From contig CP070837.1 of NCBI GenBank assembly GCA_020341815.1, positions 1,044,575 to 1,108,574 on the forward strand: 64,000 nucleotides of DNA, in the 5' to 3' direction. Positions 2,614 through 52,418 of this stretch are shown here, piece by piece (position 1 is the first letter of the stretch; the number at the start of each line of letters is the position of its first letter). Below the pieces are notes generated by a model. It ran no database searches, was not told the DNA's origin, and worked only from the letters and a program-made list of their open reading frames with translations. The stretch comes from Candidatus Omnitrophota bacterium. Lineage in GTDB: Bacteria > Omnitrophota > Gorgyraeia > JAFGHF01. The position numbers and the translations under genes were made by a program.

Positions 2614-2736
2614 ATAGTCGCTGGTCGCTAGTATCTAGTATCTAGTTAAAAACTTTTTTATATAATCTTTAATATTTATAAGTGTTTTTATTGTTTTTTA
2701 TTTTACTAAATACCAGATACTAGCGACTAGATACTG
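2614..2736. repeat. palindromic intergenic element, copy 1 (inverted arms of TAGTCGC/TAGTATC heptads around an AT-rich core)
   Basis: Left arm atagtcgctggtcgctagtatctagtatctagtt (2614-2647). Right arm accagatactagcgactagatactg (2712-2736) is its near reverse complement. A near-identical copy is at 14277-14389. Confidence 0.6.
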
Positions 2737-2758
2737 TTGAGAACGGAGTGAGCAACGA

Positions 2759-3688
2759 ATGGCAAAAAAACGCATATTAATAGTTGATGACGACCCGGAT
2801 ATCTTAGACGTGCTGCGTCTGGCTATTCCGGAAGAAGAATATGAAGTAGTCGAGGCGCATGATGGACAAGAGGCCCTGGATAAGGCATATGAGCGCCCCC
2901 CGGATCTAATTATTCTGGATTATATTATTCCCAAGATAGACGGCCGCAGCGTCTGCCAGAAGCTAAAAAAAGATATCCTCTTACGCCACATGCCTATTAT
3001 TATGCTGACCGGAAAGGGTGAAGTAAAAGATAAGGTCGAAGGATTAGACGCCGGAGCAGATGATTATATCGTTAAGCCTTTCGAACCGCAGGAGCTCTTA
3101 GCGCGCATCAGGATGATTCTCAGGCGCAGCCAGATAGATTTAGATGCCGCTCCCTTAACCCGCCTTCCCGGAAACGTCTCCATCTTCAATGAAATCGACA
3201 GAAGAATTAAAAACAGGGAGAAATTCGCGGTCGGCTATATCGATATGGACAAGTTCAAAATCTTTAACGATAAATACGGCTTTACCTGGGGAGACCGCAT
3301 TATCCAGGAAAGCGCCCGTGTCATCGTAAAGACAGTGGAAGAAAAAGGCGACCCCGATGATTTCGTCGGGCATATCGGCGGGGATGACTTCGTAATAGTT
3401 ACCTCTCTTGCCACTATCGAAGAAATCTGCCGGCAAATCATCAAAGAGTTTGACGAAGTGACTAAAAAGCTCTACAACCCCCAAGACCTGAAAAAAGGCC
3501 ACATCATAGGTAAAGACAGGCAGGGAAAGACCGTTAAGGTAGGGCTGATTACTATTTCCATAGGCGTAGTTACCAATGAGCACCGCAAGTTTACCCACGT
3601 AGCCCAGGTCGCAGAAATCGGCGCCGAGCTAAAAGAATATGCCAAGACAAAAAAGAAAAGCAATTATGTGAAAGACAAGCGTAAATAG
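2759..3688 (+). CDS. response regulator with REC domain and GGDEF-like domain (motif GGDDF)
   Basis: REC hallmarks ILIVDDDPDIL and DLIILDYIIPKIDG. C-terminal GGDEF-family pattern IDMDKFKIFNDKYGFTWGDRII ... GHIGGDDFVIV. Confidence 0.8.
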   Translation: MAKKRILIVDDDPDILDVLRLAIPEEEYEVVEAHDGQEALDKAYERPPDLIILDYIIPKIDGRSVCQKLKKDILLRHMPIIMLTGKGEVKDKVEGLDAGADDYIVKPFEPQELLARIRMILRRSQIDLDAAPLTRLPGNVSIFNEIDRRIKNREKFAVGYIDMDKFKIFNDKYGFTWGDRIIQESARVIVKTVEEKGDPDDFVGHIGGDDFVIVTSLATIEEICRQIIKEFDEVTKKLYNPQDLKKGHIIGKDRQGKTVKVGLITISIGVVTNEHRKFTHVAQVAEIGAELKEYAKTKKKSNYVKDKRK

Positions 3689-3719
3689 GTTTTCAAAGCA
3701 AAACATTGGAAATTAAAAA

Positions 3720-3750
3720 GAGCCCCAAAAATCTTGGGGCTCTTTTATTA
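3720..3750. terminator. bidirectional rho-independent terminator hairpin
   Basis: An 8-bp GC-rich stem gagcccca/tggggctc with a 7-nt loop. It is flanked by an A-run upstream and a T-run downstream. It sits between the plus-strand RR gene end and the 3' end of the minus-strand tRNA-Leu. Confidence 0.6.
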
Positions 3751-3754
3751 TCTG

Positions 3755-3841
3755 GTGCGCAGGGCGAGATTTGAACTCGCACAGGGTTTCCCCCACTACC
3801 CCCTCAAAGTAGCGTGTCTACCAGTTCCACCACCTGCGCAA
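3755..3841 (-). tRNA. tRNA-Leu (anticodon GAG), type II with long variable arm, CCA encoded
   Basis: Manual fold of the reverse complement. Acceptor GCGCAGG/CCTGCGC, D-arm GTG-GAACTGGTAGA-CAC, anticodon stem CTACT/GGTAG with loop TTGAGGG, T-arm GCGAG-TTCAAAT-CTCGC, discriminator A, CCA. Confidence 0.85.
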
Positions 3842-3930
3842 ATTGCCTCAAAAAACTACAGTAAATCTTTAGCCTCCTAAAACATTTGCTAAGTTGTCAA
3901 ATTTCTTTAAAGATGTTATCGCTGGTGATA

Positions 3931-5364
3931 TCATGATTTTTGTCTTTGCCTAACTTTCCATAAAAAATACAAGTCTTGGCTACGTATTGTTTCTTCTAGA
4001 TCACTTTTTGCCATTGTCCTTTTAGTGAGCTCTGCAATGATTTTGACTAGTCCAAGTGCACTGGCGGCAGCGATAAGTCCGTCCGGAAGAAGCCCAGAAT
4101 ACATGCCAAAAGATATAGCTCCGGTCCAAGCAATGATTTCTCGTCTTACGCCTTTAATCAATGAGCGTTGAGCTGATTTTATTCTAGTATCAAGTAAACT
4201 CAATTTAGGTCTGATTATATCTTGGAAAATTGCTTGAGCATCGCGTTTTGAAAAATTTTTACCACTTTTTCTGTATTCATTAATTGCCTTATTGAGAACA
4301 TTTCGAAATAAAATAAAAGATTCTTCCTCTCCAGCTCTAAGTTTAAGAATTTCTAAAGGATCAATATCCTCAATGAATGGAACTAAACAGGTCATATATT
4401 TTTGTATTATTTGATTCCGTTGTTCAATGTTTGGATCTAATGAGATTTCTCTCAAAAAATCAATATGGAGTATTCGTTCGGTAAGAAACGATGTATTAAG
4501 ACACTGTGCTGTTGCCAATTCAAAATTGATATTTTCGTAATTTTTTTTCGCTAGGTATTCTGCATATCCAATTTTTTTAAGAGCAGTTCTGGATAAATGA
4601 ATTTCTTTACCCTTTTTAATTTTGGCAATAATATGTGGTATTTTTTTTAAGGGCACTGGCATTTTTTCCGCTACATTAACTGTGGCTCCATGTTCAAGCA
4701 ATATTTCTGGTCCATGTGCATCTACAACATATAATCCTTTCTCCATTCTTACTGAAGCTTTGATTTGATTGTTGAATCGGTCGATTAGTTTTGTTAATGC
4801 TTTTTTTAATCTTCTATCATCTTTCTGTCCAAGAGAGTGTTTTGCTAAACAGTGCGTACAAAAATAGGGGGCTGTAATAGGGACAATCTTTTCTGCTTTT
4901 ATTAGAGGGCGTAGATAATTTAAAATAAGTAGGTCTTCAGCGAAATCTTTTTGAAATTTTCTTACATCAGATAAATTTTTTTTATTAGAGTGTTCAACGT
5001 GATCAGCTAAAAAATTCCGTATATAAACTTTATCGCTATAAAAAGCTGCGAATTGTGCCAATTGTTTTACGTAAGCCATCCTACAATCAAAAACAACGCA
5101 AGGCCATCGACTACCGCCGAGCGAAAATGAAGCAGAATGAGAAAACACAGATTCTTCCCTTGGCAATTTTTTGACAGAAGTAAGTTCCAATGATTGTTTA
5201 GAAAAATCGATAATATCGATTGGTGAGGCATGTTCAATCTGAAAAAGATTCAGTTTGCCATTACGCATAAATTTTGATTTATCAATCTGTTCAAATAAAA
5301 GATTTTTCATTATTTTCCTATTTACTGATATTAAGGAAAGGGTAAATTTACTGTTTGAATCCAA
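3931..5364 (-). CDS. hypothetical protein, 477 aa, AT-rich, no domain recognisable by eye
   Basis: Long uninterrupted ORF in a markedly AT-rich segment flanked by tRNA-Leu and tRNA-Gln. No motif I can assign. Confidence 0.5.
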   Translation of the reverse strand: MDSNSKFTLSLISVNRKIMKNLLFEQIDKSKFMRNGKLNLFQIEHASPIDIIDFSKQSLELTSVKKLPREESVFSHSASFSLGGSRWPCVVFDCRMAYVKQLAQFAAFYSDKVYIRNFLADHVEHSNKKNLSDVRKFQKDFAEDLLILNYLRPLIKAEKIVPITAPYFCTHCLAKHSLGQKDDRRLKKALTKLIDRFNNQIKASVRMEKGLYVVDAHGPEILLEHGATVNVAEKMPVPLKKIPHIIAKIKKGKEIHLSRTALKKIGYAEYLAKKNYENINFELATAQCLNTSFLTERILHIDFLREISLDPNIEQRNQIIQKYMTCLVPFIEDIDPLEILKLRAGEEESFILFRNVLNKAINEYRKSGKNFSKRDAQAIFQDIIRPKLSLLDTRIKSAQRSLIKGVRREIIAWTGAISFGMYSGLLPDGLIAAASALGLVKIIAELTKRTMAKSDLEETIRSQDLYFLWKVRQRQKS

Positions 5365-5409
5365 TCCCAGAACTCTTTAGCTTTCTTAATCTCCTCAAGC
5401 ATATCCGTA

Positions 5410-5483
5410 TGGCTGCCGAGCCAGGATTCGAACCTAGACTAAATGGTCCAGAGCCATTCGTGCTACCATTACACCACTCGGCA
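5410..5483 (-). tRNA. tRNA-Gln (anticodon CTG)
   Basis: Reverse complement folds with acceptor TGCCGAG/CTCGGCA, anticodon stem AATGG/CCATT with loop CTCTGGA, T-arm with TTCGAAT loop, discriminator G, CCA encoded. Confidence 0.8.
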
Positions 5484-5500
5484 ATATTTGCTTCTATATT

Positions 5501-6802
5501 TTATAACAGCTTTAGCGCCTGCGTCAATCTTGCACTAACTCTTTCCCTGCCTAAAGCTGCCATAGTCTCAAAAAGTCCCGGGCCCACTCTTTTGCCGGTA
5601 AGGGCTACCCTGACCGGGTGTATCAAATCCCCGCTTTTGATGCCCTCTTTGGCAATCAGGTCCCGGCAGCTATCCTCAACGGTCTTTATATCAAAAGAAT
5701 CTATTTTCTCTAAGACTGCGATTAGTTTGGTAAAGATATCCTTTGTGTTTTTCTTCTTCTGCAAGAATGTCTTTGCCTCAGGCGCAAACTCAATCTTATC
5801 CACAAAGAAAAAATCAGCCAACTCGGGGAAATCCGAAAGCTTCTTAACCCTTATCTTAAACAGTTCTACAATCTCGGTGAGCTTCTTTTTATCATAATCT
5901 TTATTGATATATTTTTTCTGAATCAAAAATGGCGCTATGAGCTCGGTTAATCTCTTTGTATCCAATTGCTGAATATACTGACCGTTCATCCACTCTAATT
6001 TTTCCGGATTAAATGCGGCGGCGGTCTTGAGCACTCTCTCCAGAGTAAACTCCCTGATTATCTCTTCTTTTGAGGCGATTTCCTGACGGGCGCCCAAAGA
6101 CCAGCCCAGAAGCGCCAGAAAGTTAAATAAAGCCTCCGGCAAATACCCCTGCTCGCGGTAATAAGAAACCGGCATTGCCCCTTTGCGCTTGGAAAGGCGC
6201 GAGCGGTCAGCCGCCACAATCAAAGGTATATGGGCAAAGCGCGGCAGGCTAAACCCTAAAGCCTCATAAATAGCCATCTGCTTAGGCGTATTGGAAATAT
6301 GGTCTTCGCCGCGGATGATGTGGGTAATTTTCATATCGTGGTCGTCAATTACGCAGGCAAAATTATAGGTCGGTGTGCCGTCGGATTTCATCAATACCTG
6401 ATCCTTAAAAGAACCGGCGGCAAACTCAATCGGGCCGCGGATTATATCGTCAAACCTGAAAGGCTTCTGGGGAACGCGTAAAATAATCGCCGTTCCTTCA
6501 GAATAGGCCTTTTTCTCATCCAGGAGTTTCTGGGCATATTTTTTATAAATAGGAAAACGTTGGCTTTGAAAATGAGGCCCCTCATCCCAATGCAAGCCCA
6601 GCCATTTAAGGTCTTCTAAAATCTGATCCAGATAAACCTTCTCCGAGCGGGCCTTATCGGTGTCCTCGATCCTCAAGACAAAGACTCCCTTGTTGTGGCG
6701 GGTGAACAGCCAGTTAAATAAAGCGGTCCTTACTCCCCCGATATGCAAATATCCCGTCGGGCTGGGCGCAAAGCGCGCTCTTACTATTTCTTTATCGGCC
6801 AT
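5501..6802 (-). CDS. gltX: glutamyl-tRNA synthetase
   Basis: N-terminus RFAPSPTGYLHIGGVRTALFNW (HIGH motif) and overall class I GluRS pattern. Lies 18 nt upstream of tRNA-Gln. Confidence 0.85.
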   Translation of the reverse strand: MADKEIVRARFAPSPTGYLHIGGVRTALFNWLFTRHNKGVFVLRIEDTDKARSEKVYLDQILEDLKWLGLHWDEGPHFQSQRFPIYKKYAQKLLDEKKAYSEGTAIILRVPQKPFRFDDIIRGPIEFAAGSFKDQVLMKSDGTPTYNFACVIDDHDMKITHIIRGEDHISNTPKQMAIYEALGFSLPRFAHIPLIVAADRSRLSKRKGAMPVSYYREQGYLPEALFNFLALLGWSLGARQEIASKEEIIREFTLERVLKTAAAFNPEKLEWMNGQYIQQLDTKRLTELIAPFLIQKKYINKDYDKKKLTEIVELFKIRVKKLSDFPELADFFFVDKIEFAPEAKTFLQKKKNTKDIFTKLIAVLEKIDSFDIKTVEDSCRDLIAKEGIKSGDLIHPVRVALTGKRVGPGLFETMAALGRERVSARLTQALKLL

Positions 6803-7328
6803 GCCTGGTGCCTTCCTCCAATGCCTTTTGATTAATTTCTATCAGATGCTGCTTATCCTTGGGAGCAATCTGGCGAAAAACCGACAAGACGCTCTCGAGT
6901 TTTAAAATATTTTTATTCTTCAAATAGGCCCCCAAAGCTACCATATTAGCCACGCGCACATCACCCAAGGAAGTGGCAATCTCGGTAAAAGAGATATTGC
7001 GCACATCTATTTTATCGGGCAAGGAGCCTGTCTTAATCAGGCTTGAATTCACCAAGGCCAGGCCCCCTTTTTTCACTCTTTCTTTAAACCTATCCCAGGA
7101 AGGCTGGTTAAAGACGAAAAGTGTATCCGTTTTATCTACATAAGGAGAGGCGATTTCTTCATCGGAGATAACCACCATACAATAGGCGCATCCGCCGCGC
7201 ATGGCCGCCCCATAAGAAGGCATCCAGGTCGTCTTTTTATTTTCCTCTAGCGCCGCCTGGGCCAGCACCTTACCCAGAAGCATTATCCCCTGTCCGCCGA
7301 AGCCGGCGCAGATAATCTCTTCTCTCAC
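6792..7328 (-). CDS. 2-oxoacid:ferredoxin oxidoreductase gamma subunit
   Basis: MREEIICAGFGGQGIMLLGKVLA ... typical POR/KOR gamma N-terminus. Last gene of the por delta-alpha-beta-gamma series. Confidence 0.8.
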   Translation of the reverse strand: MREEIICAGFGGQGIMLLGKVLAQAALEENKKTTWMPSYGAAMRGGCAYCMVVISDEEIASPYVDKTDTLFVFNQPSWDRFKERVKKGGLALVNSSLIKTGSLPDKIDVRNISFTEIATSLGDVRVANMVALGAYLKNKNILKLESVLSVFRQIAPKDKQHLIEINQKALEEGTRHGR

Positions 7329-7435
7329 CCCGCTCTTCCCTTTCTTCCTAACGCCAAGGCTTTATCCCCATCCTTTTCTTCTACCACCTTCGCCCATATC
7401 TCTTATACAAAGCATAGTATTTGGAAGGGCGGGGC

Positions 7436-7609
7436 TCATTTTAATGAAAAGGGTTTATTCACGCCCAACATTTTTTTCCATATTTTATAAGCTTTTTTAT
7501 TAAAAGTATACTTTAAGTGGAAATTGACAAATTTCAAATAATCATCCATTGATAGCCATTTTGCATCAGGAATACCTTTTTTAATAATGGGTAAATTTAA
7601 TTTTTTCAT
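7436..7609 (-). CDS. small ORF (57 aa), possible partner of the adjacent nucleotidyltransferase
   Basis: Manually translated as MKKLNLPIIKKGIPDAKWLSMDDYLKFVNFHLKYTFNKKAYKIWKKMLGVNKPFSLK. Below the ORF-track cutoff. Lies in a stop-codon-rich AT-rich spacer. Weakly similar to the 61-aa ORF at 51826-52011. Confidence 0.3.
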   Translation of the reverse strand: MKKLNLPIIKKGIPDAKWLSMDDYLKFVNFHLKYTFNKKAYKIWKKMLGVNKPFSLK

Positions 7610-7619
7610 TCTGCAATCT

Positions 7620-8150
7620 TTATATGCTTTCTAATATCTCGTTGTAGATTTCTTTTGTTCCATATTTTAGACAAAGTTTCTGGAATTTTTTGCTTTTGAA
7701 ATCTACCTCATTAATTCTGATTAAATTAATGATATCCGGCAAATCTTTAATATTACGGACCTTAGGATTATATTTAATTGAATGGAGCTTGAGCGCAATT
7801 AAATTGTATAATGAAGGGACTGTGAACTTTTGTCCCGCTATATTAATTTCTTTTCCATCTTTAATGATCTCGAGTAAAGTTTCTTTGTCCACAAACATAA
7901 AATCTATATCCCATAGATTATATTTGCTACTTTTAAGCCGAGTAAATACTTTCTGGGTATAGTCTTGTTTATAGCCTGCCTCCTTCAATAAGCCCGCTAT
8001 TTTTTCAAAATCCTCTTTAGTAATCAAAAAATCAACGTCTGCAGTCTGCCGCGTGTATTTATAATAATTAACGGCAAATCCGCCAACTAAAATACAAGAG
8101 ACGCCTGCTTTTTTAGATATAGCTGAAATGAGATGAAAAACTGTAGTCAT
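7620..8150 (-). CDS. minimal nucleotidyltransferase-fold protein (DUF6036/AbiEii-like), AT-rich insert in the por operon
   Basis: N-terminal ILVGGFAVNYY ... ADVDFLI matches the hG[GS]...D.D NTase signature. Paralogous to ORF 51971-52417. Its start codon overlaps the porB stop (ATGA). Confidence 0.6.
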   Translation of the reverse strand: MTTVFHLISAISKKAGVSCILVGGFAVNYYKYTRQTADVDFLITKEDFEKIAGLLKEAGYKQDYTQKVFTRLKSSKYNLWDIDFMFVDKETLLEIIKDGKEINIAGQKFTVPSLYNLIALKLHSIKYNPKVRNIKDLPDIINLIRINEVDFKSKKFQKLCLKYGTKEIYNEILESI

Positions 8151-8875
8151 TTAAACTTCCCCAAAGGAAATGTCTTGGTCATCTCACTCCCCACCCATTG
8201 CCAGGCACCCTGAGGCGTCTTTTTCCAGCAGACAGGACAGGGAGAGAGTATCTCTACAAGCGAAAAACCTTTATTCTCAAGCTGATTTATAAAGGCCTCT
8301 TTCAGGGCCTTTTTGGTCTTGATTACCCCGCCTACAGAATCCAGGGCCACCCGCTCCAGGGACCTTACAGCCGGCAGAACAGCTAACAACTCACAAATCT
8401 TTAAAGGGTATCCCTCAAGGGCGGGATTTCGCCCCAGAGGAGTGGTAGTGGTCTTCTGCTTCAATAAGCTTGTCGGGGCCATCTGCCCACCGGTCATTCC
8501 GTAAATCGCGTTATTGATAAAAGCCACGCTTAAGTTTTCTCCGCGATTAGCCGCATGGATTGTCTCGGCAGTGCCGATAGCCGCTAAATCCCCGTCGCCC
8601 TGATAGGTAAAGACAAACCTATTCGGCTGCGTGCGCTTAATGCCCGTAGCCACTGCCAGGGCGCGGCCGTGAGCAGCCTCACAGCAGTCAAAGTTCCAGT
8701 AATCATAGGCCACTACCGCACAACCCACGGGACAGACGGCAATAGTCTTTTCCCTGATTCCCAGCTCATCAATCAGCTCACAAATCAGCCGATGTACTAT
8801 GCCGTGTCCGCAGCCTGCGCAATAATGCGTATCTACATCTCGCAATGATTCAGGACGGGTAAATATCTTTTCCAA
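8147..8875 (-). CDS. 2-oxoacid:ferredoxin oxidoreductase beta subunit (TPP-binding)
   Basis: CAGCGHG ... GDGD TPP-binding pattern typical of POR/KOR beta. Confidence 0.85.
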   Translation of the reverse strand: MEKIFTRPESLRDVDTHYCAGCGHGIVHRLICELIDELGIREKTIAVCPVGCAVVAYDYWNFDCCEAAHGRALAVATGIKRTQPNRFVFTYQGDGDLAAIGTAETIHAANRGENLSVAFINNAIYGMTGGQMAPTSLLKQKTTTTPLGRNPALEGYPLKICELLAVLPAVRSLERVALDSVGGVIKTKKALKEAFINQLENKGFSLVEILSPCPVCWKKTPQGAWQWVGSEMTKTFPLGKFK

Positions 8876-8878
8876 GAA

Positions 8879-9928
8879 TTATATCCTTTCCAAAATCTCT
8901 TCTTCCGTGGGGATGCCTCCGCCTGCGCGGCCATAAAAATCAATCCTAGCACGCCCATTAACCGCTAAGCGCACATCCTCAACCATCTGCCCGTAGGACA
9001 TCTCGGTAACAAAAAATCTTAATTTTTTCTTTTTCTTCTTAAGTAAATCCTCAAATATGCCGACGGGGAAAGGCCAGAGACTGATGGGCCGCAAAAGGCC
9101 GGCCTTCTTACCCTTCTTACGCAGACTCTGGACCGCACTGCGGGCAATACGTGCTGTGCTTCCATAAGCTACCAAAATTATCTCACTATCCTCTAAATGC
9201 ATTCCTTCGAAGCGCTGCTCTTTCTGGGTAATCTGCGCATATTGCTTCTGGAGAACCTTATTGAATTTCTCCAGGTCCCCTTCCTGCATATAAAATGACT
9301 TTACTATATTAGGAGCCTTCCCTTTACAACCCGTCAGCGCCCAGGGTTTCTTAACCTGTTTTTTACCGGATGCACTGGAAGTAATTGTAATAGGCTCCAT
9401 CATCTGCCCCAGCATCCCATCACCCAATATTATTGCGGGCGTGCGGTATTTATCGGCGAGGTCAAAGCCTAAAAATACGAGGTTGTATGCCTCCTGAACC
9501 GAAGAAGGGGCAAGCACAATACAATGATAGTCCCCATGGCCGCCTCCTTTGGTGGCCTGAAAATAATCCGACTGAGCGGGAGCGATATTACCTAAGCCCG
9601 GTCCCCCGCGCATAATGTTTACAATCAGGCACGGCAGGCGCGCCCCGGCCAGATAAGAAATCCCCTCCTGTTTAAGGCTGATTCCCGGGCCTGAAGAAGA
9701 GGTCATTGCCCGCCGGCCGCTGGCCGCAGCTCCCATTACCATGCTAATAGCGGCCAGTTCGCTTTCTGCCTGCACAAATACACGATTTGCCCGGGGCATG
9801 TTTTCAGCCATATAAGCGGTAAGCTCATTTTGGGGCGTAATCGGATAACCGGCGTAAAAATCGCATCCGGCGCGAATTGCTCCTTCAGCAATGGCTTCAT
9901 TTCCGCTTATCAGTATCTTCTCACGCAT
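8879..9928 (-). CDS. 2-oxoacid:ferredoxin oxidoreductase alpha subunit
   Basis: ISGNEAIAEGAIRAGCDFYAGYPITP N-terminus typical of POR/KOR alpha. Confidence 0.85.
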   Translation of the reverse strand: MREKILISGNEAIAEGAIRAGCDFYAGYPITPQNELTAYMAENMPRANRVFVQAESELAAISMVMGAAASGRRAMTSSSGPGISLKQEGISYLAGARLPCLIVNIMRGGPGLGNIAPAQSDYFQATKGGGHGDYHCIVLAPSSVQEAYNLVFLGFDLADKYRTPAIILGDGMLGQMMEPITITSSASGKKQVKKPWALTGCKGKAPNIVKSFYMQEGDLEKFNKVLQKQYAQITQKEQRFEGMHLEDSEIILVAYGSTARIARSAVQSLRKKGKKAGLLRPISLWPFPVGIFEDLLKKKKKKLRFFVTEMSYGQMVEDVRLAVNGRARIDFYGRAGGGIPTEEEILERI

Positions 9929-9930
9929 AC

Positions 9931-10131
9931 TTACTTATACACCTCGATACAACAATCCGGGCATATCCGGGCGCAAAGCGCACAGGCAGAACAGTCTCCC
10001 TCGGTAAAACAGACAAAGCGCACCCCGCGCTTATTTAAAGATTTACTTAAGGTAATCAGCTTTTTGGGACAACTATCTATGCAAAGACAACAACCCTTGC
10101 ATTTTTCTTTTTTTATTTTTATCTTACCCAT
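9931..10131 (-). CDS. 4Fe-4S ferredoxin-type delta subunit of 2-oxoacid:ferredoxin oxidoreductase
   Basis: Two CxxCxxCxxxCP cluster motifs in 66 aa. Immediately upstream of the alpha subunit. Confidence 0.75.
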   Translation of the reverse strand: MGKIKIKKEKCKGCCLCIDSCPKKLITLSKSLNKRGVRFVCFTEGDCSACALCARICPDCCIEVYK

Positions 10132-12019
10132 TTATCATTTTCTCGTGTTGCGCCGACAGGCCTATTTCTGCATTAAGCACGCTATTAACTATACCCTCGG
10201 CGCTCAATCCATGCTTTTCCAGAAGAAATTCCCGTTTTGCGTGGGGAATAAAGACAGAAGGAAGAGCAATCCTTATTACGCGCACCTTTTCAAGGCCTTC
10301 TCTTTCCAGAAACTCCAACACCGCCGAGCCAAACCCGCCTTCTGCGACCCCTTCCTCTACCGTAACTATCGTCTCAACTTCAATGCAGAGCCTCTTGAAC
10401 AATAACCCATCAAGCGGTTTTACAAAACGGGCATTGATTACGGTGCAATCTATGCCCTGTGAGCTTAATATCCGCGCTGCCTCCAGGGCAGGATAAACCA
10501 TGCTCCCCAAGGCCACAATCGCCAGGTCTTTACCTCGTCTCAAAACTTCAGCCTTGCCGCATTGAATCTCGGAAGGCTTATAGTCTTCAGAAAACAATTC
10601 ACCTCTTTGAGGGACTTCTCCTTTTGGATATCTGATAGCTAAAGGCCTTGACTGGCCAGAGGCAAACTCCAGCATCTTCTCTAATTCTTCTCCGTCTTTA
10701 GGAGCCAAAAGCGTTAAATTGGGAATATGCCTGAGATATGCCACATCAAAAATACCCTGATGGGTAGCGCCGTCCTCTCCGACGATACCTGCGCGGTCAA
10801 GACATAAGACTACGGGTAAGCTCTGCAGACAGACATCGTGGATAAGCTGGTCGTAAGAACGCTGTAAAAAAGTAGAATAAATAGCCACAAAGGGCCTTAA
10901 GCCTCTCCGGGCTAGCCCGGCGGCAAAACCTACGGCGTGGGCCTCGGCCATTCCCACATCATAAAACCTTTTAGGAAAACTCTGAGCAAACTTATCTAAT
11001 CCCGTGCCTTCGGCCATAGCCGCAGTAATGCCTGCAATCTTTTCGTCCTTTTGGGCCAGAGAAATTAATTTTTCGCTGAAGACTTGAGTAAAAGTTTTAT
11101 TCGTAACTTTATTGTCTCCACCGTTGGCGCTTATCCCGTGAAATTTCTCGGGGATTCGCTCAGCCTGAGAATATCCTTTGCCTTTTACGGTAACCGCATG
11201 GATAAGCACCGGTTCTTTCAACTTAAGCACATTTCTTAAAGTGCGCACCACTTCTTTAACATTATGCCCGTCGATGGGGCCGAAATAACGAAAGCCCAAT
11301 TCTTCAAAGATTATTCCCGGCACTAAAAGATTTTTTAAGCTTTCCTCTAAGCGCTTAGCAGCAGAAAACAGTTTATTCCCCAGGCGGGGAACCCTCTTCA
11401 CCAGATTTTCTATATCCTGCCTTATGCGGTTGTATATCGGCATGGTAAGTATGCGGTTAAGATAGCGGCTGAGCGCCCCCACGCTTTTGGAAATAGCCAT
11501 CTTATTATCATTGAGCACGACTACCAAATCTTTATGCAGCTGTCCGGCATGATTAAGGGCCTCAAAGGCCATTCCTCCGCCTAAGGCGGCATCGCCGATT
11601 ACCGCTACAACCTTAGAGTTTTTCTCTGTATCGGCACAGGCAAGCCCCAGGGCCGTAGAAATAGAAGTGGAGCCATGGCCAGTCGTAAACGTATCATAGA
11701 CGCTCTCCTCTTTATTGGGAAAACCGCTTATCCCCTGCCACTGCCTGAGCGTCTTTAGTCTCTCTCTGCGCCCGGTTAAAATTTTATGGGCATAGGCCTG
11801 ATGCCCCACGTCCCAGACTATTTTGTCTTTCGGGGTATCAAGGCAATAGTGCAAGGCAATAGCCAGTTCCACCGCTCCCAGGCTGGACGCCAGATGCCCG
11901 CCGGTCACAGAGACGGTTGCGATAATCTCCCGGCGAATCTCCTGGGCAAGAAGTGAAAGCTCTTTTAGGGCGAGCTTTTTTAAATCAGCGGGATTACTGA
12001 TTTGTTCTAATAAGCTCAT
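10124..12019 (-). CDS. dxs: 1-deoxy-D-xylulose-5-phosphate synthase
   Basis: ELSLLAQEIR ... GGHLASSLGAVEL ... GDGA TPP motif. Transketolase-like layout of ~630 aa. Confidence 0.9.
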   Translation of the reverse strand: MSLLEQISNPADLKKLALKELSLLAQEIRREIIATVSVTGGHLASSLGAVELAIALHYCLDTPKDKIVWDVGHQAYAHKILTGRRERLKTLRQWQGISGFPNKEESVYDTFTTGHGSTSISTALGLACADTEKNSKVVAVIGDAALGGGMAFEALNHAGQLHKDLVVVLNDNKMAISKSVGALSRYLNRILTMPIYNRIRQDIENLVKRVPRLGNKLFSAAKRLEESLKNLLVPGIIFEELGFRYFGPIDGHNVKEVVRTLRNVLKLKEPVLIHAVTVKGKGYSQAERIPEKFHGISANGGDNKVTNKTFTQVFSEKLISLAQKDEKIAGITAAMAEGTGLDKFAQSFPKRFYDVGMAEAHAVGFAAGLARRGLRPFVAIYSTFLQRSYDQLIHDVCLQSLPVVLCLDRAGIVGEDGATHQGIFDVAYLRHIPNLTLLAPKDGEELEKMLEFASGQSRPLAIRYPKGEVPQRGELFSEDYKPSEIQCGKAEVLRRGKDLAIVALGSMVYPALEAARILSSQGIDCTVINARFVKPLDGLLFKRLCIEVETIVTVEEGVAEGGFGSAVLEFLEREGLEKVRVIRIALPSVFIPHAKREFLLEKHGLSAEGIVNSVLNAEIGLSAQHEKMING

Positions 12020-12249
12020 TGTTCCTCGGCATTGTCGGTGAAGGGCTCAACCTCCCAGCCCTCATCCTTTTTGGTCAGGACCTGTATTTTCTTCTGGGCT
12101 GCCTGCAGGCTCTTATGGCAAAAGCGGGAAAGCTTTACGCCCTCTTCATATCGCTTCAATGAATCCTCTAAAGAGAGCTTACCCGACTCCAATTCCTCAA
12201 CTATTTTTTCCAACCTTTTTAAAGCCTCTTCGAATTTCATCTCCGTCAT
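12016..12249 (-). CDS. xseB: exodeoxyribonuclease VII small subunit
   Basis: 77-aa coiled-coil protein FEEALKRLEKIVEELESG. Coupled upstream of dxs and downstream of xseA. Confidence 0.8.
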   Translation of the reverse strand: MTEMKFEEALKRLEKIVEELESGKLSLEDSLKRYEEGVKLSRFCHKSLQAAQKKIQVLTKKDEGWEVEPFTDNAEEQ

Positions 12250-13472
12250 TGCCTATCATCTCCTTCGATTTTCTCTACCTTGCTGATAAATGAACCACAG
12301 GCTAACTTTGTCTCCAGTCTTTCCCCAATTTTTAGCGTCTTTACTTCTGTAACTGAATGCCTTTGAGGCAGCTTAAGTGTTATGCTGTAGCCGCGGGATA
12401 GAATATTTAGAGGGCTTAAGGCATGGAGCTTGCCGATTAAGACATTATATCTTTCCTGATAGATCTCGGCTAAGTGGGAGGCCTTAAGATCCAGAATTGA
12501 AACTAATTCATCTATGCGCAATTTGTATTGCCGGATTAAGTCGGTTGGTTCTTTAAAGACATACCGTCCTCGGAAAACCCTTAATTTTTCCTGAAGCAAT
12601 TCTATCTTGTTGCAAACGGCAATCTTTGCCCGGGAATAAAAATTATCTATCCTATCCAGAAGCTCCTGTTTGCGAGCAATAACCTGCTCGGCCGCCGCCG
12701 AGGGCGTGGGCGCACGCAGGTCAGCCACAAAATCCGATATAGTATAATCTATCTCATGCCCCACCGCGGAAATCACCGGTATCGCCGAACGAAATATCGC
12801 TCGAGCTACCGCCTCCTCATTAAACGCCCAGAGGTCTTCTAAGCTTCCGCCTCCGCGGGTAACAATCAAAACATCAACTGCGCCAAAACTGTTAAACTCA
12901 TCGATGGCCCGGGCAATCTCAAGCCCTGAGCCCTCTCCCTGCACTTTTACCGGATTTATAATTATGGAAAGATTGGCAAATCTTCTCCTTAAGACCTGCA
13001 GGATATCGCGAATAGCTGCGCCTCGAGGCGAGGTGACAATACCAATGCGCTGCGGAAGAAAAGGAAGAGGCTTTTTATGTTCTTCCTCAAAAAGGCCCTC
13101 GGCCAAAAGCCGCTCTTTAAGCTGCTGAAAGGCCAGCTGAAGCGCCCCCAGACCCTTTGGCTCGATAACGTCGGGATAAAACTGATATCTGCCGTCGCGC
13201 TCAAAGACCGAAATTCTTCCCCTGCACGTTACCTGCAGGCCGGTCTTTAGCTTAAACTTAAGAGCCTTTGCCATATTGGCAAAGATTACGCATTTTAATT
13301 GCGCCTTTTCGTCTTTAAGGGTAAAAAATACTGTCCCGGTGGAAATAGGGCTAACCCCGGAAATTTCGCCCTCTATCCAGACCTGCTGAAAGCCTTCCTC
13401 CAGCAATATCTTTACTCTGCGCGTCAACTCCGTAACTGTATAAATACGTCTTTTGGTATCTGCCTGCTTCAT
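12246..13472 (-). CDS. xseA: exodeoxyribonuclease VII large subunit
   Basis: N-terminal OB-fold region and overall XseA pattern (YTVTELTRRVKILLE ...). 4-nt overlap with xseB. Confidence 0.85.
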   Translation of the reverse strand: MKQADTKRRIYTVTELTRRVKILLEEGFQQVWIEGEISGVSPISTGTVFFTLKDEKAQLKCVIFANMAKALKFKLKTGLQVTCRGRISVFERDGRYQFYPDVIEPKGLGALQLAFQQLKERLLAEGLFEEEHKKPLPFLPQRIGIVTSPRGAAIRDILQVLRRRFANLSIIINPVKVQGEGSGLEIARAIDEFNSFGAVDVLIVTRGGGSLEDLWAFNEEAVARAIFRSAIPVISAVGHEIDYTISDFVADLRAPTPSAAAEQVIARKQELLDRIDNFYSRAKIAVCNKIELLQEKLRVFRGRYVFKEPTDLIRQYKLRIDELVSILDLKASHLAEIYQERYNVLIGKLHALSPLNILSRGYSITLKLPQRHSVTEVKTLKIGERLETKLACGSFISKVEKIEGDDRQ

Positions 13473-32921: not shown

Positions 32922-32998
32922 TGGTGGGCGGTACAGGATTCGAACCTGTGACCTTTTGCATGTCAAGCAAACGCGCTAACCAACTGCGCCAACCGCCC
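32922..32998 (-). tRNA. tRNA-Val (anticodon GAC)
   Basis: Reverse complement GGGCGGTTGGCGCAGTTGGTTAGCGCGTTTGCTTGACATGCAAAAGGTCACAGGTTCGAATCCTGTACCGCCCACCA folds as a cloverleaf with loop TTGACAT. Confidence 0.85.
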
Positions 32999-33006
32999 TA
33001 TTGTTC

Positions 33007-33094
33007 TGGTGCCGAGAGTGGGAGTCGAACCCACACGGAGCTAAGCTCCAATGGATTTTAAGTCCATATCGTCTACCAGTTCCGACATCTCGGC
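33007..33094 (-). tRNA. tRNA-Leu (anticodon TAA), type II
   Basis: Acceptor GCCGAGA/TCTCGGC, anticodon stem ATGGA/TCCAT with loop CTTAAAA, long variable arm, T-arm GTGGG-TTCGACT-CCCAC, CCA encoded. Confidence 0.85.
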
Positions 33095-33096
33095 AA

Positions 33097-33771
33097 TCAA
33101 TTATTTTCACCAAAAACAGTTTTACTCTTCTGCCAACCTCTATAAGAAACGATGCATTCCTGAGCTAATTTCATTTTTCTTTTTAACCCAAGAGCATGTT
33201 TATAATAACATTTTTTCGCAATCTCTCTCGCTGCCATCTTACCATATTTTAATACCCATTTAGTTTTAGTAGTACGTTCTTTGTGAATTTTACCATGAAC
33301 TCTTAATAGTAATGTTATCGCACCATCTAACCATTTGACAAATTTTTCGGAACCAGAATAGATCCTTAAGCTCCATTGTTCTCTATTATTAGTTGGGTGT
33401 ATCCATCGACGTATAGAACCATCGCCATCGATTAAACCTCTTAAAAAATCAATAAAGTGTTGGTTGGGTACTTCTATTGCACCCAAAGTTAATGATTTAT
33501 TTTGCGTGAGCCCAATAGATAATAGAAAATCATAGAATCTAACATTCGAAAATTGAATTTGATAAGCTTGATTAATTTTATTTTTATTTTTAGTACCGAC
33601 CTTATTAATCAATCCAAGTGTATTTTTAAGTTCTTTAAGAAATATAAAATCCTTTGAAGTAATATTTATATGCCTTCCATCGCAACTTAAACTTCCATCG
33701 CTGGTAATTAACCCCACTAAATACCAAAGATTTGTTCCTTTGATTTTTAAATCTTTTCGTTTATGTGGCAT
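33097..33771 (-). CDS. free-standing double-motif LAGLIDADG homing endonuclease
   Basis: Two LAGLIDADG motifs, LVGLITSDGSL and LRGLIDGDGSI, about 100 aa apart. AT-rich. Bounded by intact tRNA genes 3 and 9 nt away. Confidence 0.8.
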   Translation of the reverse strand: MPHKRKDLKIKGTNLWYLVGLITSDGSLSCDGRHINITSKDFIFLKELKNTLGLINKVGTKNKNKINQAYQIQFSNVRFYDFLLSIGLTQNKSLTLGAIEVPNQHFIDFLRGLIDGDGSIRRWIHPTNNREQWSLRIYSGSEKFVKWLDGAITLLLRVHGKIHKERTTKTKWVLKYGKMAAREIAKKCYYKHALGLKRKMKLAQECIVSYRGWQKSKTVFGENN

Positions 33772-33780
33772 TTATCAATC

Positions 33781-33855
33781 TGGAGGCGGCTGTCGGATTC
33801 GAACCGACGAATAAGGGTTTTGCAGACCCCCGCCTTCCCACTTGGCTAAGCCGCC
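33781..33855 (-). tRNA. tRNA-Cys (anticodon GCA)
   Basis: Acceptor GGCGGCT/AGCCGCC, discriminator U, anticodon stem GGGGT/ACCCT with loop CTGCAAA, T-arm GTCGG-TTCGAAT-CCGAC. Confidence 0.8.
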
Positions 33856-34496
33856 CTTTCTATTCTCTCAAGCAAAACTCTGGAAAGATGCGTTTTGGTT
33901 TTTGCTTTTATTTCCTGCTTATATCCGTTGCTATCGGCAAGCAGAACATCGATGCCTTTTTTCCCGAAGGGAAGTTTATTTATTTTCATCTGCGTTGCCA
34001 CAATCAAATCCAGATTTTTCTCTTTTAATTTATCCTGCGCATTTTTCTGCAGGTTTTCTGTTTCCAGGGCAAAGCCGACCAGCATCTTCTTCCCTTTTTT
34101 ACCGCCGAGGCTCTTCAAGATATCGGGATTCTGCTTTAATTTCAGCTCTATTTCCTTTTTATTGCCTCTTTTGATTTTCTTCTTCGCTGTTTTCTTGACA
34201 TAGAAATCACAAACAGCCGCTGTCATTATCAGGCAATCGCACCAGCCAAATACTTTCTCAAGCTCTTTTTTCATCTGGCGCGCCGTAACTACATCTATCA
34301 AGCGCACGCCTTGCGGCCTCAATAATGAAGTCGGCCCGCTAATCAGAATGACCCGATGTCCTCTTTTTACGGCTTCTTTTGCGATTTCATAACCAAGAAA
34401 GCCCGTAGAATAATTAGAGATAAATCGCACCGGATCTATAGGCTCACGCGTCGGCCCGGCAGTTATCAGGATATTGAGCCTTTTTTTTAGCTTCAC
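33846..34496 (-). CDS. coaB: phosphopantothenate--cysteine ligase (stand-alone CoaB domain)
   Basis: ILITAGPTREPIDPVRFISNYSTG motif of Dfp C-terminal (CoaB) domains. The last 3 codons overlap the tRNA-Cys 5' end. Confidence 0.8.
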   Translation of the reverse strand: MKLKKRLNILITAGPTREPIDPVRFISNYSTGFLGYEIAKEAVKRGHRVILISGPTSLLRPQGVRLIDVVTARQMKKELEKVFGWCDCLIMTAAVCDFYVKKTAKKKIKRGNKKEIELKLKQNPDILKSLGGKKGKKMLVGFALETENLQKNAQDKLKEKNLDLIVATQMKINKLPFGKKGIDVLLADSNGYKQEIKAKTKTHLSRVLLERIERAA

Positions 34497-42316: not shown

Positions 42317-43690
42317 ATGGAAGGCTTAGCAGAACAGCTTTGGAGGCAAATCCTGGACACAGCCAAGGAAACTTTAGGCGAACAAAGCTTCGAGACCTGG
42401 TTTCGCCCTATAAGAGTGCAGGATTTCTCAGAGAATACACTGACCCTGGAGCTGCCAAATAAGTTTTTCCAGACCTGGATAAAAGAGCACTATCTGGGAT
42501 TGATTAAACAGGCCTTAAGCTCCGCTATTCAGAAAGATGATGTAGAGGTGCAGCTGGTGTTGACGCAGGCAGAACCGCTTTCTTCGCCGGAGAAAAAAGA
42601 AGAGCCCAAACCAAGGCGGTGGTTTTTTCGCAAACCTCCTCAGCCGCAACAAGAGACTCAATCCGCTGATTCCTTCAAGGTAGATGCCCGCTACAGCTTT
42701 GAGAATTTTGTGGTAGGCCCGAGTAACCGATTTGCCCACGCCGCCTCTATGGCGGTGGGAGAGTCTCCGGCCCGCTCTTACAATCCCTTGTTTATCTACG
42801 GAGGGGTGGGGTTAGGAAAAACACACCTGATGCAGGCCATCGGCGGGCACATCCTGAAAAACAACCCCCGGCTTAAAGTAACTTATATCTCCAGCGAAAA
42901 GTTTACCAATCAACTAATCAGCGCTATTCAGCACCGCACCACTACGAACTTCAGGGAAAAATACCGCCATGTGGATATCCTGTTAATCGACGATATCCAT
43001 TTTATCGGCGGCAAAGAGGCCACCCAGGAAGAGTTTTTCCATACTTTCAATGCTCTTTACGACGCCCATAAACAGATTGTCCTTTCCAGCGACCGGCCCC
43101 CGAAAGATATCCCCACCTTGGAAGAAAGGCTGGTTTCCCGTTTTGAATGGGGCCTGGTTACCGACATCCAGCCTCCGGATTTAGAAACCCGCATCGCCAT
43201 CCTGAAGAAAAAACTCGAACAGAATAAAATCGATGTGCCCGACGATGTTATCTTTTTCATCGCCGACAAAGTCCGGCTGAATATCCGTGAGCTGGAAGGG
43301 GCGCTGATTCGGGTGGTGGCCTACTCCTCTTTAACCAATGAAAAAATTACCCTGGATTTGGCCCGCTCCGTCTTAAAAGACATGCTGCTGGAAGACAAAA
43401 AACTCTCTGTTGAAGCTATTCAGAAAAAAGTGGCTGCCCATTTCGATATCCGTATCCTGGATTTAAAAGCGAAAAAGAGAAATCGGGCGGTAGTTTACCC
43501 CCGTCAGATTGCCATGTATCTCACCCGTACTCTTACTGATTTTTCCTTACCGGAAATAGGCGAATATTTCGGGGGCAGAGACCATACTACAGTCCTCTAT
43601 GCTTACGACAAGATCCAGAGGGATTCAAAAAAGGACTCGAACTTACAAGACCTGCTTGACAGATTGGTAATGGATATAAGAAGTGATTAA
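42317..43690 (+). CDS. dnaA: chromosomal replication initiator DnaA
   Basis: AAA+ Walker A GGVGLGKTHL. Box VII and the C-terminal DNA-binding signature (YPRQIAMYL ... GGRDHTTV). Confidence 0.95.
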   Translation: MEGLAEQLWRQILDTAKETLGEQSFETWFRPIRVQDFSENTLTLELPNKFFQTWIKEHYLGLIKQALSSAIQKDDVEVQLVLTQAEPLSSPEKKEEPKPRRWFFRKPPQPQQETQSADSFKVDARYSFENFVVGPSNRFAHAASMAVGESPARSYNPLFIYGGVGLGKTHLMQAIGGHILKNNPRLKVTYISSEKFTNQLISAIQHRTTTNFREKYRHVDILLIDDIHFIGGKEATQEEFFHTFNALYDAHKQIVLSSDRPPKDIPTLEERLVSRFEWGLVTDIQPPDLETRIAILKKKLEQNKIDVPDDVIFFIADKVRLNIRELEGALIRVVAYSSLTNEKITLDLARSVLKDMLLEDKKLSVEAIQKKVAAHFDIRILDLKAKKRNRAVVYPRQIAMYLTRTLTDFSLPEIGEYFGGRDHTTVLYAYDKIQRDSKKDSNLQDLLDRLVMDIRSD

Positions 43691-43720
43691 GCCATCCGTG
43701 ACTTAGTCCCGAGACGAGTC

Positions 43721-43812
43721 TGTGGATAAGATGTGGATAGAATACCAGACTTATCCACAAGGTTTTAAGTTTGTTATTCTTTACATTTATTGAAGTAACG
43801 AAGTTATCCACA
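43721..43812. promoter_or_regulatory. DnaA-box cluster (oriC segment) between dnaA and dnaN
   Basis: tgtggataa (43721-29), tgtggatag (43733-41), ttatccaca (43751-59), ttatccaca (43804-12). AT-rich stretch between them. Confidence 0.7.
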
Positions 43813-43881
43813 GTTTCCTCAAGACTTACTATTACGACTACTTATTTTTCTATCTAAAAGAGAATATAAGGAGAACAAAAA

Positions 43882-51822: not shown

Positions 51823-51825
51823 ATT

Positions 51826-52417: not shown

Positions 52418-52418
52418 C

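Follow-up and report, generated by a model that had tools for sequence, protein, structure and literature searches.

The space between the genes for tRNA-Leu(GAG) and tRNA-Gln(CTG) in an Omnitrophota genome is occupied by a single open reading frame (ORF), and the whole 64,000-nucleotide stretch of DNA in which it was analyzed is referred to here as the window. The neighbors of this slot are gltX, POR, a response regulator/GGDEF gene, a histidine kinase gene, and a FIST gene. A first-pass annotation made from the nucleotide sequence alone had described a long intact ORF next to gltX and between two tRNAs, and this description holds: the ORF is uninterrupted at 3931-5364 on the minus strand, and both tRNA genes as well as gltX were found (Table 1). 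The protein length of 477 aa given there had been counted mechanically from an upstream TTG codon and is corrected to 459 aa, because all homologues start at the Met encoded at 5310, with an AGGA sequence five nucleotides upstream. The in-frame extension upstream of this Met was found in no aligned homologue and is probably an untranslated leader. The 459-aa protein is 100% identical to the metagenome-assembled genome protein JSV30_05580 of a “Candidatus Omnitrophota” bacterium. A 6-kb Logan contig, assembled independently, matches the locus across both junctions at 100% identity.

Table 1. Features of the tRNA-bounded slot and its cargo gene (positions in the window)
Feature	Position	Strand	Remark
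GC-rich hairpin, then T-run	3716..3746	.	Perfect 13-bp hairpin after tRNA-Leu; from inverted-repeat search and sequence
tRNA-Leu(GAG)	3753-3839	-	Downstream slot boundary; conserved in L014
Cargo segment	3841..5409	.	All sequence between both tRNAs; without counterpart at the syntenic sister locus
CDS of the 459-aa protein	3931..5310	-	ATG 5310-5308; TGA stop 3933-3931
C-terminal aromatic/basic amphipathic helix	3946..3978	-	D-L/M-Y-F-L-W-K-V
Gly/Ala-rich hydrophobic helical hairpin	4021..4149	-	Residues 388-430; pLDDT 55-65
Middle and C-terminal helical region	4156..4665	-	Residues 216-385
N-terminal α/β domain	4666..5310	-	Residues 1-215; most conserved part of the protein
Codon of H207	4690-4692	-	
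Codon of C154	4849-4851	-	
Codon of C151	4858-4860	-	
Codon of C76	5083-5085	-	
Codon of C71	5098-5100	-	
In-frame upstream extension from TTG	5311..5364	-	Source of the 477-aa length; contains AGGA 5319-5316
tRNA-Gln(CTG)	5410-5483	-	Upstream slot boundary; next to gltX in relatives too
Best sigma-70-like promoter match	5498..5527	-	TTGACG-18-TAAAAT; 10/12 positions, consensus match only; just upstream of tRNA-Gln
gltX	5501-6802		

The composition of the gene sets it apart from its surroundings, as had been noted at the outset. Its GC content is 0.336, compared with 0.457 in the flanks and 0.448 in the window, and 600-nt windows (mean, 0.448; standard deviation, 0.047) fall to a minimum of 0.313 within the gene. 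At third codon positions the GC content (GC3) is 0.228 versus 0.50 to 0.55 in the neighboring genes, so the difference sits at synonymous sites and does not stem from amino acid content. A GC3 value 27 to 32 points under that of the neighbors means that the gene is not ameliorated, and a recent arrival therefore fits better: the proposal of an old acquisition retained in a tRNA-bounded slot stands as to acquisition, while its age is doubtful. No integrase and no att-like repeat lie around the gene, again in agreement with the first-pass annotation. A tRNA-targeting integrative element or genomic island was rejected, there being no integrase or recombinase at either end and no att repeats. Searches for att-type direct repeats or a duplicated tRNA 3' end across the flanks returned only short, chance-level repeats (≤73% identity), and ARAGORN and Rfam detected in the slot nothing but the two intact tRNAs, with no partial tRNA duplication.

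The slot was compared in five related Omnitrophota genomes, in one of which alone (L014) both of its boundaries are visible. The L014 backbone is the same as that of the window (gltX, tRNA-Gln, tRNA-Leu, response regulator/GGDEF, histidine kinase, and FIST; 71 to 78% identity), while the cargo between the same two tRNAs differs and consists of a 23S_rRNA_IVP protein gene and a membrane ORF. In blastn, the match between the two genomes breaks off precisely at the edges of the tRNAs (5410 and 3840). After tRNA-Gln, a second genome (L013) carries LexA and then AlwI restriction-modification genes, a third (L016) HNH and DUF3800 genes, and a fourth (L015) DUF3800. The gene itself was sought at 80 gltX loci and was present in none. 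Since the flanks are conserved and the cargo differs among genomes, the slot is a cargo hotspot, variable in content and framed by conserved core genes, without an integrase, and the gene is its horizontally acquired, sole cargo downstream of gltX in this Omnitrophota genome. Integrase-free variable defense hotspots between conserved core genes occur in E. coli and Pseudomonas; the present slot resembles them in its conserved flanks, its genome-dependent cargo (AlwI in one case, HNH and DUF3800 in others), and the lack of an integrase or att sites. It differs from them in that its cargo here is a single gene, and the comparison covers only five related genomes, one with both boundaries. As an integrase-free tRNA-Gln/tRNA-Leu hotspot of small-genome Omnitrophota, the locus could be mined for further candidates.

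The gene had been called an orphan, which it is not. A word-indexed search returned 84 full-length homologues, and an exhaustive profile search, with clusters defined at 50% identity, returned 2,426 cluster representatives at E ≤ 1e-3, including 742 that reach E ≤ 1e-30. Nearly all of the best-scoring 150 representatives are full-length (about 455 to 470 aa). The family ranges over at least six phyla and is found mostly in uncultured ones, e.g., Omnitrophota, Planctomycetota, Verrucomicrobiota, Acidobacteriota, and Gemmatimonadota. Second and third word-indexed searches, with an alignment query and with a distant Fusibacter member, yielded no new or annotated branches; named members, or matches to Pfam, NCBIfam, or PADLOC, were not found among the family, and viral contigs, a phage collection, and a plasmid collection contained no relatives. 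Homology searches were also used to check whether the gene falls into a common housekeeping family whose members elsewhere have ordinary composition, and it does not. Instead, the family is a large, widely scattered set of uncharacterized single-gene modules.

The first-pass annotation had found no motif that it could place, and database searches agree, with nothing significant in Pfam, NCBIfam, PADLOC, or PHROGs. The 5,027 models of PADLOC-DB v2.0.0 gave 0 families at E ≤ 1 with the protein, Foldseek of the structural model gave no match at E ≤ 1e-3 in PDB or BFVD, and a PDB sequence search with the family profile and consensus halves returned only noise (MRPS26, and shikimate dehydrogenase; E of 0.003 over 55 residues). 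A Pfam scan of the family (65 aligned members plus the consensus, whole and halved) gave as its only lead a sub-threshold likeness to DUF6236 (PF19749), itself a domain of unknown function. Family residues from about 296 to 394 align to profile positions from about 166 to 262, in the same place in every matching member, and this stretch of ~100 residues of the C-terminal helical module contains an L-x-L-R-x2-E-x3-F-x3-R block. Scores are 12.5 to 16.4 bits (E of 0.0035 to 0.085) against a gathering cutoff of 26.2; the family consensus scores 14.9 to 16.4 bits (E of 0.0055 to 0.016), 4 of the 65 members match at E ≤ 0.1, and the window protein does not match. The alignment extends neither to the N-terminal domain with its four cysteines nor to the hydrophobic hairpin or the YFLW helix of the family, and at most the likeness suggests a distant shared module, not membership. 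In the literature library that was searched, no paper mentions DUF6236 or PF19749. Matches to Col-Pyo_DNase (E of 0.007 to 0.2) fall in another region and concern a nuclease, not a pore domain; these and scattered Pfam matches to OrfB_IS605, RRF, and others were regarded as noise.

The AlphaFold2 model of the 459-aa protein is confident (pLDDT, 82; pTM, 0.81). Across 206 sequences, the N-terminal α/β domain retains C71, C76, C151, and H207 in ≥95% and C154 in 85 to 95%; R77, Y91, S92, D93, and D126 are also conserved. Strands 57-60, 94-98, and 142-146 each precede Cys-bearing loops (pLDDT of about 90), and in the model both Cys pairs lie in loops after neighboring parallel strands, which suggests a putative metal (Zn or Fe−S) site at the C-terminal edge of the parallel sheet. 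The helical region that follows contains a conserved block (P311, R325, E328, F332, R336, D364, P368). Next is a helical hairpin with a turn at LLPDG and conserved G402xxxG406 and G420, which is the most hydrophobic stretch of the family profile. In the window protein the Kyte-Doolittle hydropathy over 19 residues has its maximum of 1.75 at residues 407-425 and is about 1.1 in the first hairpin arm; across the family the median is 1.58, with values above 1.6 in 42% of members, borderline for a transmembrane segment. The hairpin is a candidate membrane-inserting or oligomerization element. Y448, F449, L450, and W451 of the C-terminal helix are nearly invariant, and a membrane-interface role of this helix is putative.

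Several known activities were considered for this architecture and rejected. A SIR2-type NADase, prompted by the four cysteines and an “EHG” sequence, has no SIR2 Pfam match in 65 members; no sirtuin fold is among the Foldseek PDB matches, and the cysteines precede the His, in contrast to the GAGxS, HG, CxxC, CxxC order. For the Cys/His/Asp pattern, a PD-(D/E)xK nuclease, an HNH nuclease, a deaminase, and a DDE transposase were weighed on the basis of motif order and secondary structure, but neither profiles nor folds supported any of them. A type II toxin-antitoxin system was discarded, with no partner ORF in the 99-nt and 91-nt spacers and no recurrent neighbor elsewhere. The same applies to a type III system (ToxIN or AbiQ-like), whose tandem RNA repeats upstream of the toxin gene were not found here: TRF detected a single 19-nt repeat, at chance level and within the ORF, and Rfam detected none.

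Elsewhere, the family gene is always solitary, without a recurrent neighbor at about 30 independent loci. Its GC content is below that of the flanks at 30 of 37 loci (median, −5 points; down to −17), and in one locus pair it is 15 points above them. Genes lying at most three genes away include those for a type IIG restriction-modification enzyme (E of 2.7e-194), a TIR effector (5.8e-97), and Ppl (7.5e-50), and further neighbors in this range are DpnI, Bpu10I, toxin-antitoxin pairs (L004 and L011), a serine recombinase, and an integrase (recombinase or integrase at L001 and L012). Many other loci, L002 and L006 among them, have housekeeping neighbors only. The family neighbors match 170 PADLOC families versus 13, all weak, for the control neighbors of gltX in 21 genomes, a crude comparison in which the 170 is inflated by redundant models, ORFs came from a greedy picker, and a single control anchor was used. 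Defense, toxin-antitoxin, and recombinase genes are much commoner around the family gene than around the control gltX.

The cargo of related slots and the family neighborhoods make a circumstantial case for a defense or toxin role. We tentatively read the gene, from its sequence and setting, as encoding a stand-alone conflict or defense protein, anti-phage or abortive-infection in type, with a membrane-active C terminus. The N-terminal domain, with its four Cys, a His, and conserved Arg/Asp/Ser/Tyr, would bind a metal and serve as the sensing or catalytic part; the C-terminal hairpin with its Gly/Ala-rich hydrophobic tip (GxxxG), followed by the YFLW helix, would be the effector, which may engage the cytoplasmic membrane or drive oligomerization. 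Counting against this reading are the empty PADLOC and PHROGs searches and those of the phage, plasmid, and viral-contig collections, the many family loci whose neighbors are all housekeeping genes, the crudeness of the neighborhood comparison, and the borderline hydrophobicity of the hairpin. Unlikely in this specific form is an unrecognized single-protein anti-phage system in which a Cys4 sensor or enzyme, of a fold not in PDB, would be coupled to a colicin-like hairpin that inserts and kills or arrests the infected cell.

Single-gene abortive-infection and defense proteins with membrane-active C termini include the lactococcal Abi proteins and the transmembrane effectors of CBASS and Pycsar. 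The family resembles these in that its gene is solitary, AT-rich relative to the host, and patchy across phyla, that it occupies variable hotspots where restriction-modification, toxin-antitoxin, and TIR genes lie close by, and that an N-terminal globular domain is joined to a C-terminal hydrophobic helical hairpin. It differs from them in having no match among the PADLOC models, no cyclase or other signaling partner, and a hairpin of borderline hydrophobicity for a true transmembrane hairpin. In pore-forming colicins a buried hydrophobic hairpin inserts when triggered, and the ~40-residue Ala/Gly-rich hairpin within an otherwise soluble helical protein recalls colicin or Bcl-2-type hairpins, although as a structural analogy only, with no sequence or Foldseek similarity. 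If the family is a defense or toxin module, it would be a new single-gene system of at least 2,400 clusters, in phyla whose immune repertoires are poorly charted, with a domain that so far has no detectable structural relatives.

A mobile accessory gene with a non-defense role, such as a membrane-associated metal-dependent enzyme or regulator for niche adaptation, is a somewhat doubtful alternative. The strongest conservation, in the polar and Cys cluster of the N-terminal domain, is active-site-like, several loci lie amid housekeeping genes, and PADLOC and PHROGs are without a match. Accessory genes are generally AT-rich and located in hotspots, and on this view the gene would merely happen to land in variable regions, like most of them. 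Against such a role, about 30 loci show no conserved metabolic or transport partner, Pfam, NCBIfam, and PDB offer no relative, and restriction, TIR, Ppl, and toxin-antitoxin neighbors are much commoner than in the control. An ordinary accessory enzyme would make the family a routine conserved hypothetical protein, worth a DUF entry and little more.

That the gene is a selfish or addiction toxin, or leftover cargo of a degraded tRNA-targeting integrative element, of no benefit to the host, is quite improbable. The tRNA-flanked position and unameliorated composition agree with it, as do the recombinase or integrase genes and toxin-antitoxin pairs found near some family members. In the window, however, the slot lacks an integrase, att repeats, a partial tRNA copy, and an antitoxin ORF, no small gene co-occurs with the family across loci, and the family is absent from the viral, phage, and plasmid collections. 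Moreover, family members have stayed intact and full-length across thousands of lineages, which points to selection on function and argues against a selfish or leftover origin.

A housekeeping factor related to tRNA or aminoacyl-tRNA synthetases and tied to gltX and the two tRNAs is scarcely credible: gltX, tRNA-Gln, and tRNA-Leu all run in the same direction as the gene and may share a transcript with it, and methionyl-tRNA synthetases (MetRS) form the top Foldseek PDB rows, but these matches are at noise level (E of 0.06 to 1.6; TM of 0.15 to 0.24; rmsd of >20 Å), and a MetRS-like class I synthetase was rejected because the TM score is about 0.2; there is also no tRNA-synthetase Pfam match and, on inspection, no HIGH or KMSKS motif, a tRNA lies within 2.5 kb of the family gene at only 1 of 37 loci, the gene is missing from relatives that have this tRNA pair or gltX, and its GC3 is foreign.

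From the candidate promoter upstream of tRNA-Gln, one transcript may span tRNA-Gln, the ORF, and tRNA-Leu and end at the hairpin past tRNA-Leu. This hairpin is the sole terminator-like element downstream of the ORF, is absent from the list of a stricter terminator scan, and might act as a terminator for the convergent GGDEF gene as well.

The gene in the slot between tRNA-Gln(CTG) and tRNA-Leu(GAG), read by the first-pass annotation as an AT-rich, 477-residue orphan, perhaps of old acquisition and with a possible defense or toxin function, is a genuine, intact coding sequence that evolves under purifying selection and belongs to a large, undescribed, and uncharacterized family. The ORF, both flanking tRNAs, and the low GC content hold up: the GC content is 0.336 in the gene versus 0.457 in the flanks and 0.448 in the window, and within the gene the GC minimum over 600 nt falls about 2.9 standard deviations below the window mean. 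The length does not, because all homologues begin at the Met encoded at position 5310, with AGGA five nucleotides upstream, and the protein thus has 459 aa. GC3 is 0.228 in the gene versus 0.50 to 0.55 in six neighboring genes; the synonymous sites of the gene thus have a foreign composition, with no drift to that of the host, which bears out an acquisition but makes “old” probably wrong. An assembly chimera at the junctions is ruled out, since a separately assembled 6,012-bp Logan contig from run SRR14739666 matches window positions 2663 to 8674 at 100% identity. A TTG ORF antisense to tRNA-Gln and the 3′ end of gltX is almost certainly spurious.

Features of the window, of gltX loci in related Omnitrophota (L013 to L016), and of loci carrying family members in other genomes (remaining L numbers)
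Locus	Feature	Position	Strand	Remarks
Window	Terminator-like hairpin	3716-3746		perfect 13 bp plus T-run
Window	tRNA-Leu(GAG)	3753-3839	minus	flanks ORF
Window	Slot cargo	3841-5409
Window	Mechanical ORF	3931-5364	minus	477 aa from TTG
Window	Antisense TTG ORF	5355-5897	plus	180 aa
Window	tRNA-Gln(CTG)	5410-5483	minus	flanks ORF
Window	Promoter-like site	5527-5498	minus
Window	gltX	5501-6802		directly upstream of ORF
Window	Oxidoreductase γ gene	6792-7328
Window	Low-GC insertion	7329-8150		GC about 0.30, GC3 0.32
Window	57-aa ORF	7436-7609	minus	follows nucleotidyltransferase
Window	Nucleotidyltransferase, 176 aa	7620-8150	minus	NTP_transf_5, AbiEii-like, DUF2204
Window	Oxidoreductase β gene	8147-8875
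Window	Low-GC patch	33001-34100		overlaps tRNA-Val/Leu/Cys cluster (32922-33855)
Window	Low-GC patch	43601-44300
Window	Low-GC patch	51601-52800		overlaps tRNA-Glu (52419-52496)
Window	Cytosine-5 DNA methyltransferase	56069-57484		fused to Vsr-like endonuclease tail
Window	Ser/Thr-kinase-like protein, 388 aa	59964-61130	minus	C-terminal Cys-rich ribbon
Window	Large serine recombinase, 545 aa	61985-63622
L013	PilZ-domain gene	7398-7769
L013	Cargo after tRNA-Gln	7960-12586		LexA, then AlwI restriction endonuclease and two methyltransferases
L014	PilZ-domain gene	7312-7680
L014	Cargo between its two tRNAs	7900-8801		23S_rRNA_IVP four-helix-bundle gene and 122-aa multi-pass membrane ORF
L015	PilZ-domain gene	6624-6992
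L015	Cargo after tRNA-Gln	7203-8407		lipoprotein-like ORF and DUF3800 gene
L016	Cargo after tRNA-Gln	7424-8803		HNH endonuclease and DUF3800 gene
L001	Neighbors			DpnI, serine recombinase
L002	Downstream gap	9387-10201
L004	Downstream gap	2131-2647
L004	Neighbors			MazE, Phd-ParE, Apyc1-like metallo-β-lactamase
L008	Downstream gap	9429-10299
L008	Neighbor			DUF4145
L011	Neighbors			Phd-ParE
L012	Neighbors			integrase, HNH
L105	Neighbor			methyltransferase
L106	Family gene	5797-7167
L106	Neighbor			Ppl (7.5e-50)
L107	Family gene	3735-5105
L114	Neighbor			type IIG restriction-modification enzyme directly downstream (E 2.7e-194)

“Orphan” proved wrong. A Candidatus Omnitrophota MAG encodes the identical protein on a 1.55-Mb contig, as hypothetical protein JSV30_05580. 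A word-indexed search returned 84 full-length homologues (25 to 53% identity) from MAGs labeled Sedimentisphaerales, Verrucomicrobiae, Longimicrobium, Blastocatellia, “Lokiarchaeota,” and Fusibacter, as well as from numerous unbinned metagenome contigs; each of the 84 is annotated as “hypothetical” and lacks Pfam domains. When 1.84 billion cluster representatives were searched exhaustively with a profile, 2,426 matched at E ≤ 1e-3, 742 of them at E ≤ 1e-30, and nearly all of the best 150 of the 2,426 are about 455 to 470 aa long, with a single domain architecture. No significant match came from Pfam scans, which covered the protein, the consensus of the family, and 65 of its members, or from comparison of the protein with NCBIfam, PADLOC, and PHROGs; searches of IMG/VR viral contigs, GenBank phages, and PLSDB plasmids turned up no relative. 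The single recurring Pfam signal, at the same aligned positions in each matching member (residues about 296 to 394), is a sub-threshold match (12.5 to 16.4 bits versus a cutoff of 26.2) to DUF6236, itself uncharacterized and without mention in the searchable literature. The fold is possibly undescribed.

An AlphaFold2 model built from a 65-sequence alignment is confident (pLDDT 82, pTM 0.81). Residues 1 to 215 make up an α/β domain, in which parallel strands at 57 to 60, 94 to 98, and 142 to 146 precede an antiparallel three-strand meander (184 to 214). In a 206-sequence alignment, C71, C76, R77, C151, and H207 are at least 95% conserved, and A60, L64, G66, Y91, S92, D93, D126, P135, and C154 are 85 to 95% conserved. 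In the model, the two Cys pairs occupy loops after neighboring parallel strands, so they are expected to come together along the C-terminal edge of the sheet, the usual ligand-binding place in α/β folds; we infer from the model a putative Zn or Fe−S site beside a polar pocket. The rest of the protein is helical, with a conserved block (P311, R325, E328, F332, R336, D364, and P368) and two very long modeled helices (355 to 404 and 410 to 442). Their tip, residues 388 to 430 (WTGAISFGMYSGLLPDGLIAAASALGLVKII), is where the family profile peaks in hydrophobicity; it carries a conserved G402xxxG406 and G420, and is modeled with low confidence (pLDDT 55 to 65); its KD19 of 1.75 (family median, 1.58; 42% of members above 1.6) is borderline for a transmembrane segment. 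The C-terminal end is a nearly invariant aromatic/basic helix, D-M/L-Y-F-L-W-K-V.

We tentatively favor a stand-alone conflict module, although we put this at somewhat under an even chance. The four-cysteine domain would sense or catalyze, and membrane action or oligomerization would fall to the hydrophobic hairpin and the YFLW helix; the analogy is to pore-forming colicins, which have a hidden hairpin, and to Abi or CBASS effectors that are membrane-active. In all 37 family loci with usable flanks the gene is solitary, and all-against-all BLAST of three neighbors on each side revealed no recurrent partner except in duplicate samplings of the same genome. Its GC content is below that of the flanks in 30 of the 37 (median, −5 points; down to −17); one pair of loci, L106 and L107, shows the reverse (0.477 versus 0.32 to 0.33, +15 points). 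These offsets fit repeated horizontal transfer. In the same pair, a Ppl-like defense gene lies upstream of the GC-richer family gene.

The neighbors are mixed. Some are housekeeping genes (ALAD, RNase E/G, and Lon), and a nondefense accessory enzyme or regulator is a reading that we consider somewhat less likely than a conflict module; many members adjoin defense, toxin-antitoxin, or recombinase genes, further examples being Bpu10I, a TIR effector (5.8e-97), and YLATT. Family-gene neighbors matched 170 PADLOC families (best, 2.7e-194), although redundancy among the models raises this count (one protein matched 33, another 22). A crude control, the three genes flanking gltX on either side in 21 unrelated genomes, matched only 13 (best, 4e-20); with neighbor ORFs called by a simple greedy picker, this enrichment is suggestive and not a statistic. 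Gaps of 500 to 870 bp with no called gene directly follow the family gene at L002, L004, and L008, and neighbor clustering supplied no conserved ORF to fill them. As a conflict module, the family is a reasonable and cheaply testable candidate among many uncharacterized families near defense genes, not yet a surprise.

The slot itself is an integrase-free variable hotspot, at which sister genomes carry in part restriction-type cargo. Among 80 gltX loci fetched by GltX from GTDB species representatives, the closest relatives (GltX identity, 70 to 75%) retain POR-α/β/γ, gltX, and tRNA-Gln(CTG), and in most cases a PilZ gene separates the last two. The sister locus L014 also retains tRNA-Leu(GAG), the response regulator/GGDEF, the histidine kinase, and FIST (71 to 78% protein identity to the window). 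At the nucleotide level, its similarity to the window breaks off precisely at 5410 and 3840, the edges of the tRNAs, and this delimits the cargo and again speaks for acquisition. The PilZ-domain gene (122 to 123 aa) occurs in three of the four closest relatives; L016 and the window have none between gltX and tRNA-Gln, and in the window merely 17 nt (5484 to 5500) separate the gltX stop from the tRNA. L015 and L016 have the DUF3800 gene in common.

In the window slot, as previously noted, there is no integrase, nor is there an att-type repeat, a tandem repeat, or any Rfam element besides the tRNAs; that the gene is a selfish toxin or an island remnant seems improbable. Among the definitions tested, only “variable cargo hotspot between conserved genes” describes the locus; tests for membership in PADLOC families, DUF6236 (below threshold), tRNA-integrating islands, type II and type III toxin-antitoxin systems, class I synthetases, and SIR2 all failed. 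The case is familiar in kind, an accessory gene of unassigned function in a hotspot. A tRNA- or synthetase-related housekeeping role is very improbable, given that the gene is absent from relatives with the same tRNAs (no family member in the 80 gltX loci), shows no tRNA linkage at other family loci, and has MetRS matches at noise level. Of the 37 family loci, a single one has a tRNA within 2.5 kb, so the pairing is specific to the window genome. There, judging from consensus matches, the ORF may be cotranscribed with both tRNAs, because the top promoter-like match on the coding strand immediately precedes tRNA-Gln and the sole terminator-like element downstream follows tRNA-Leu.

Other low-GC regions occur in the window. 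A second insertion splits the pyruvate:ferredoxin oxidoreductase operon between its β and γ genes, which in relatives are 0 to 144 bp apart without a nucleotidyltransferase gene between them; the nucleotidyltransferase and the 57-aa ORF may form a small toxin-antitoxin-like pair. Positions 56069 to 63622, with a low-GC island at 57.3 to 61.7 kb (minimum, 0.32), look like a mobile or defense island: the methyltransferase, kinase-like protein, and recombinase were read from translation only and are accompanied by several small ORFs without assignment. The further patches listed lie more than 1.5 standard deviations under the window mean.
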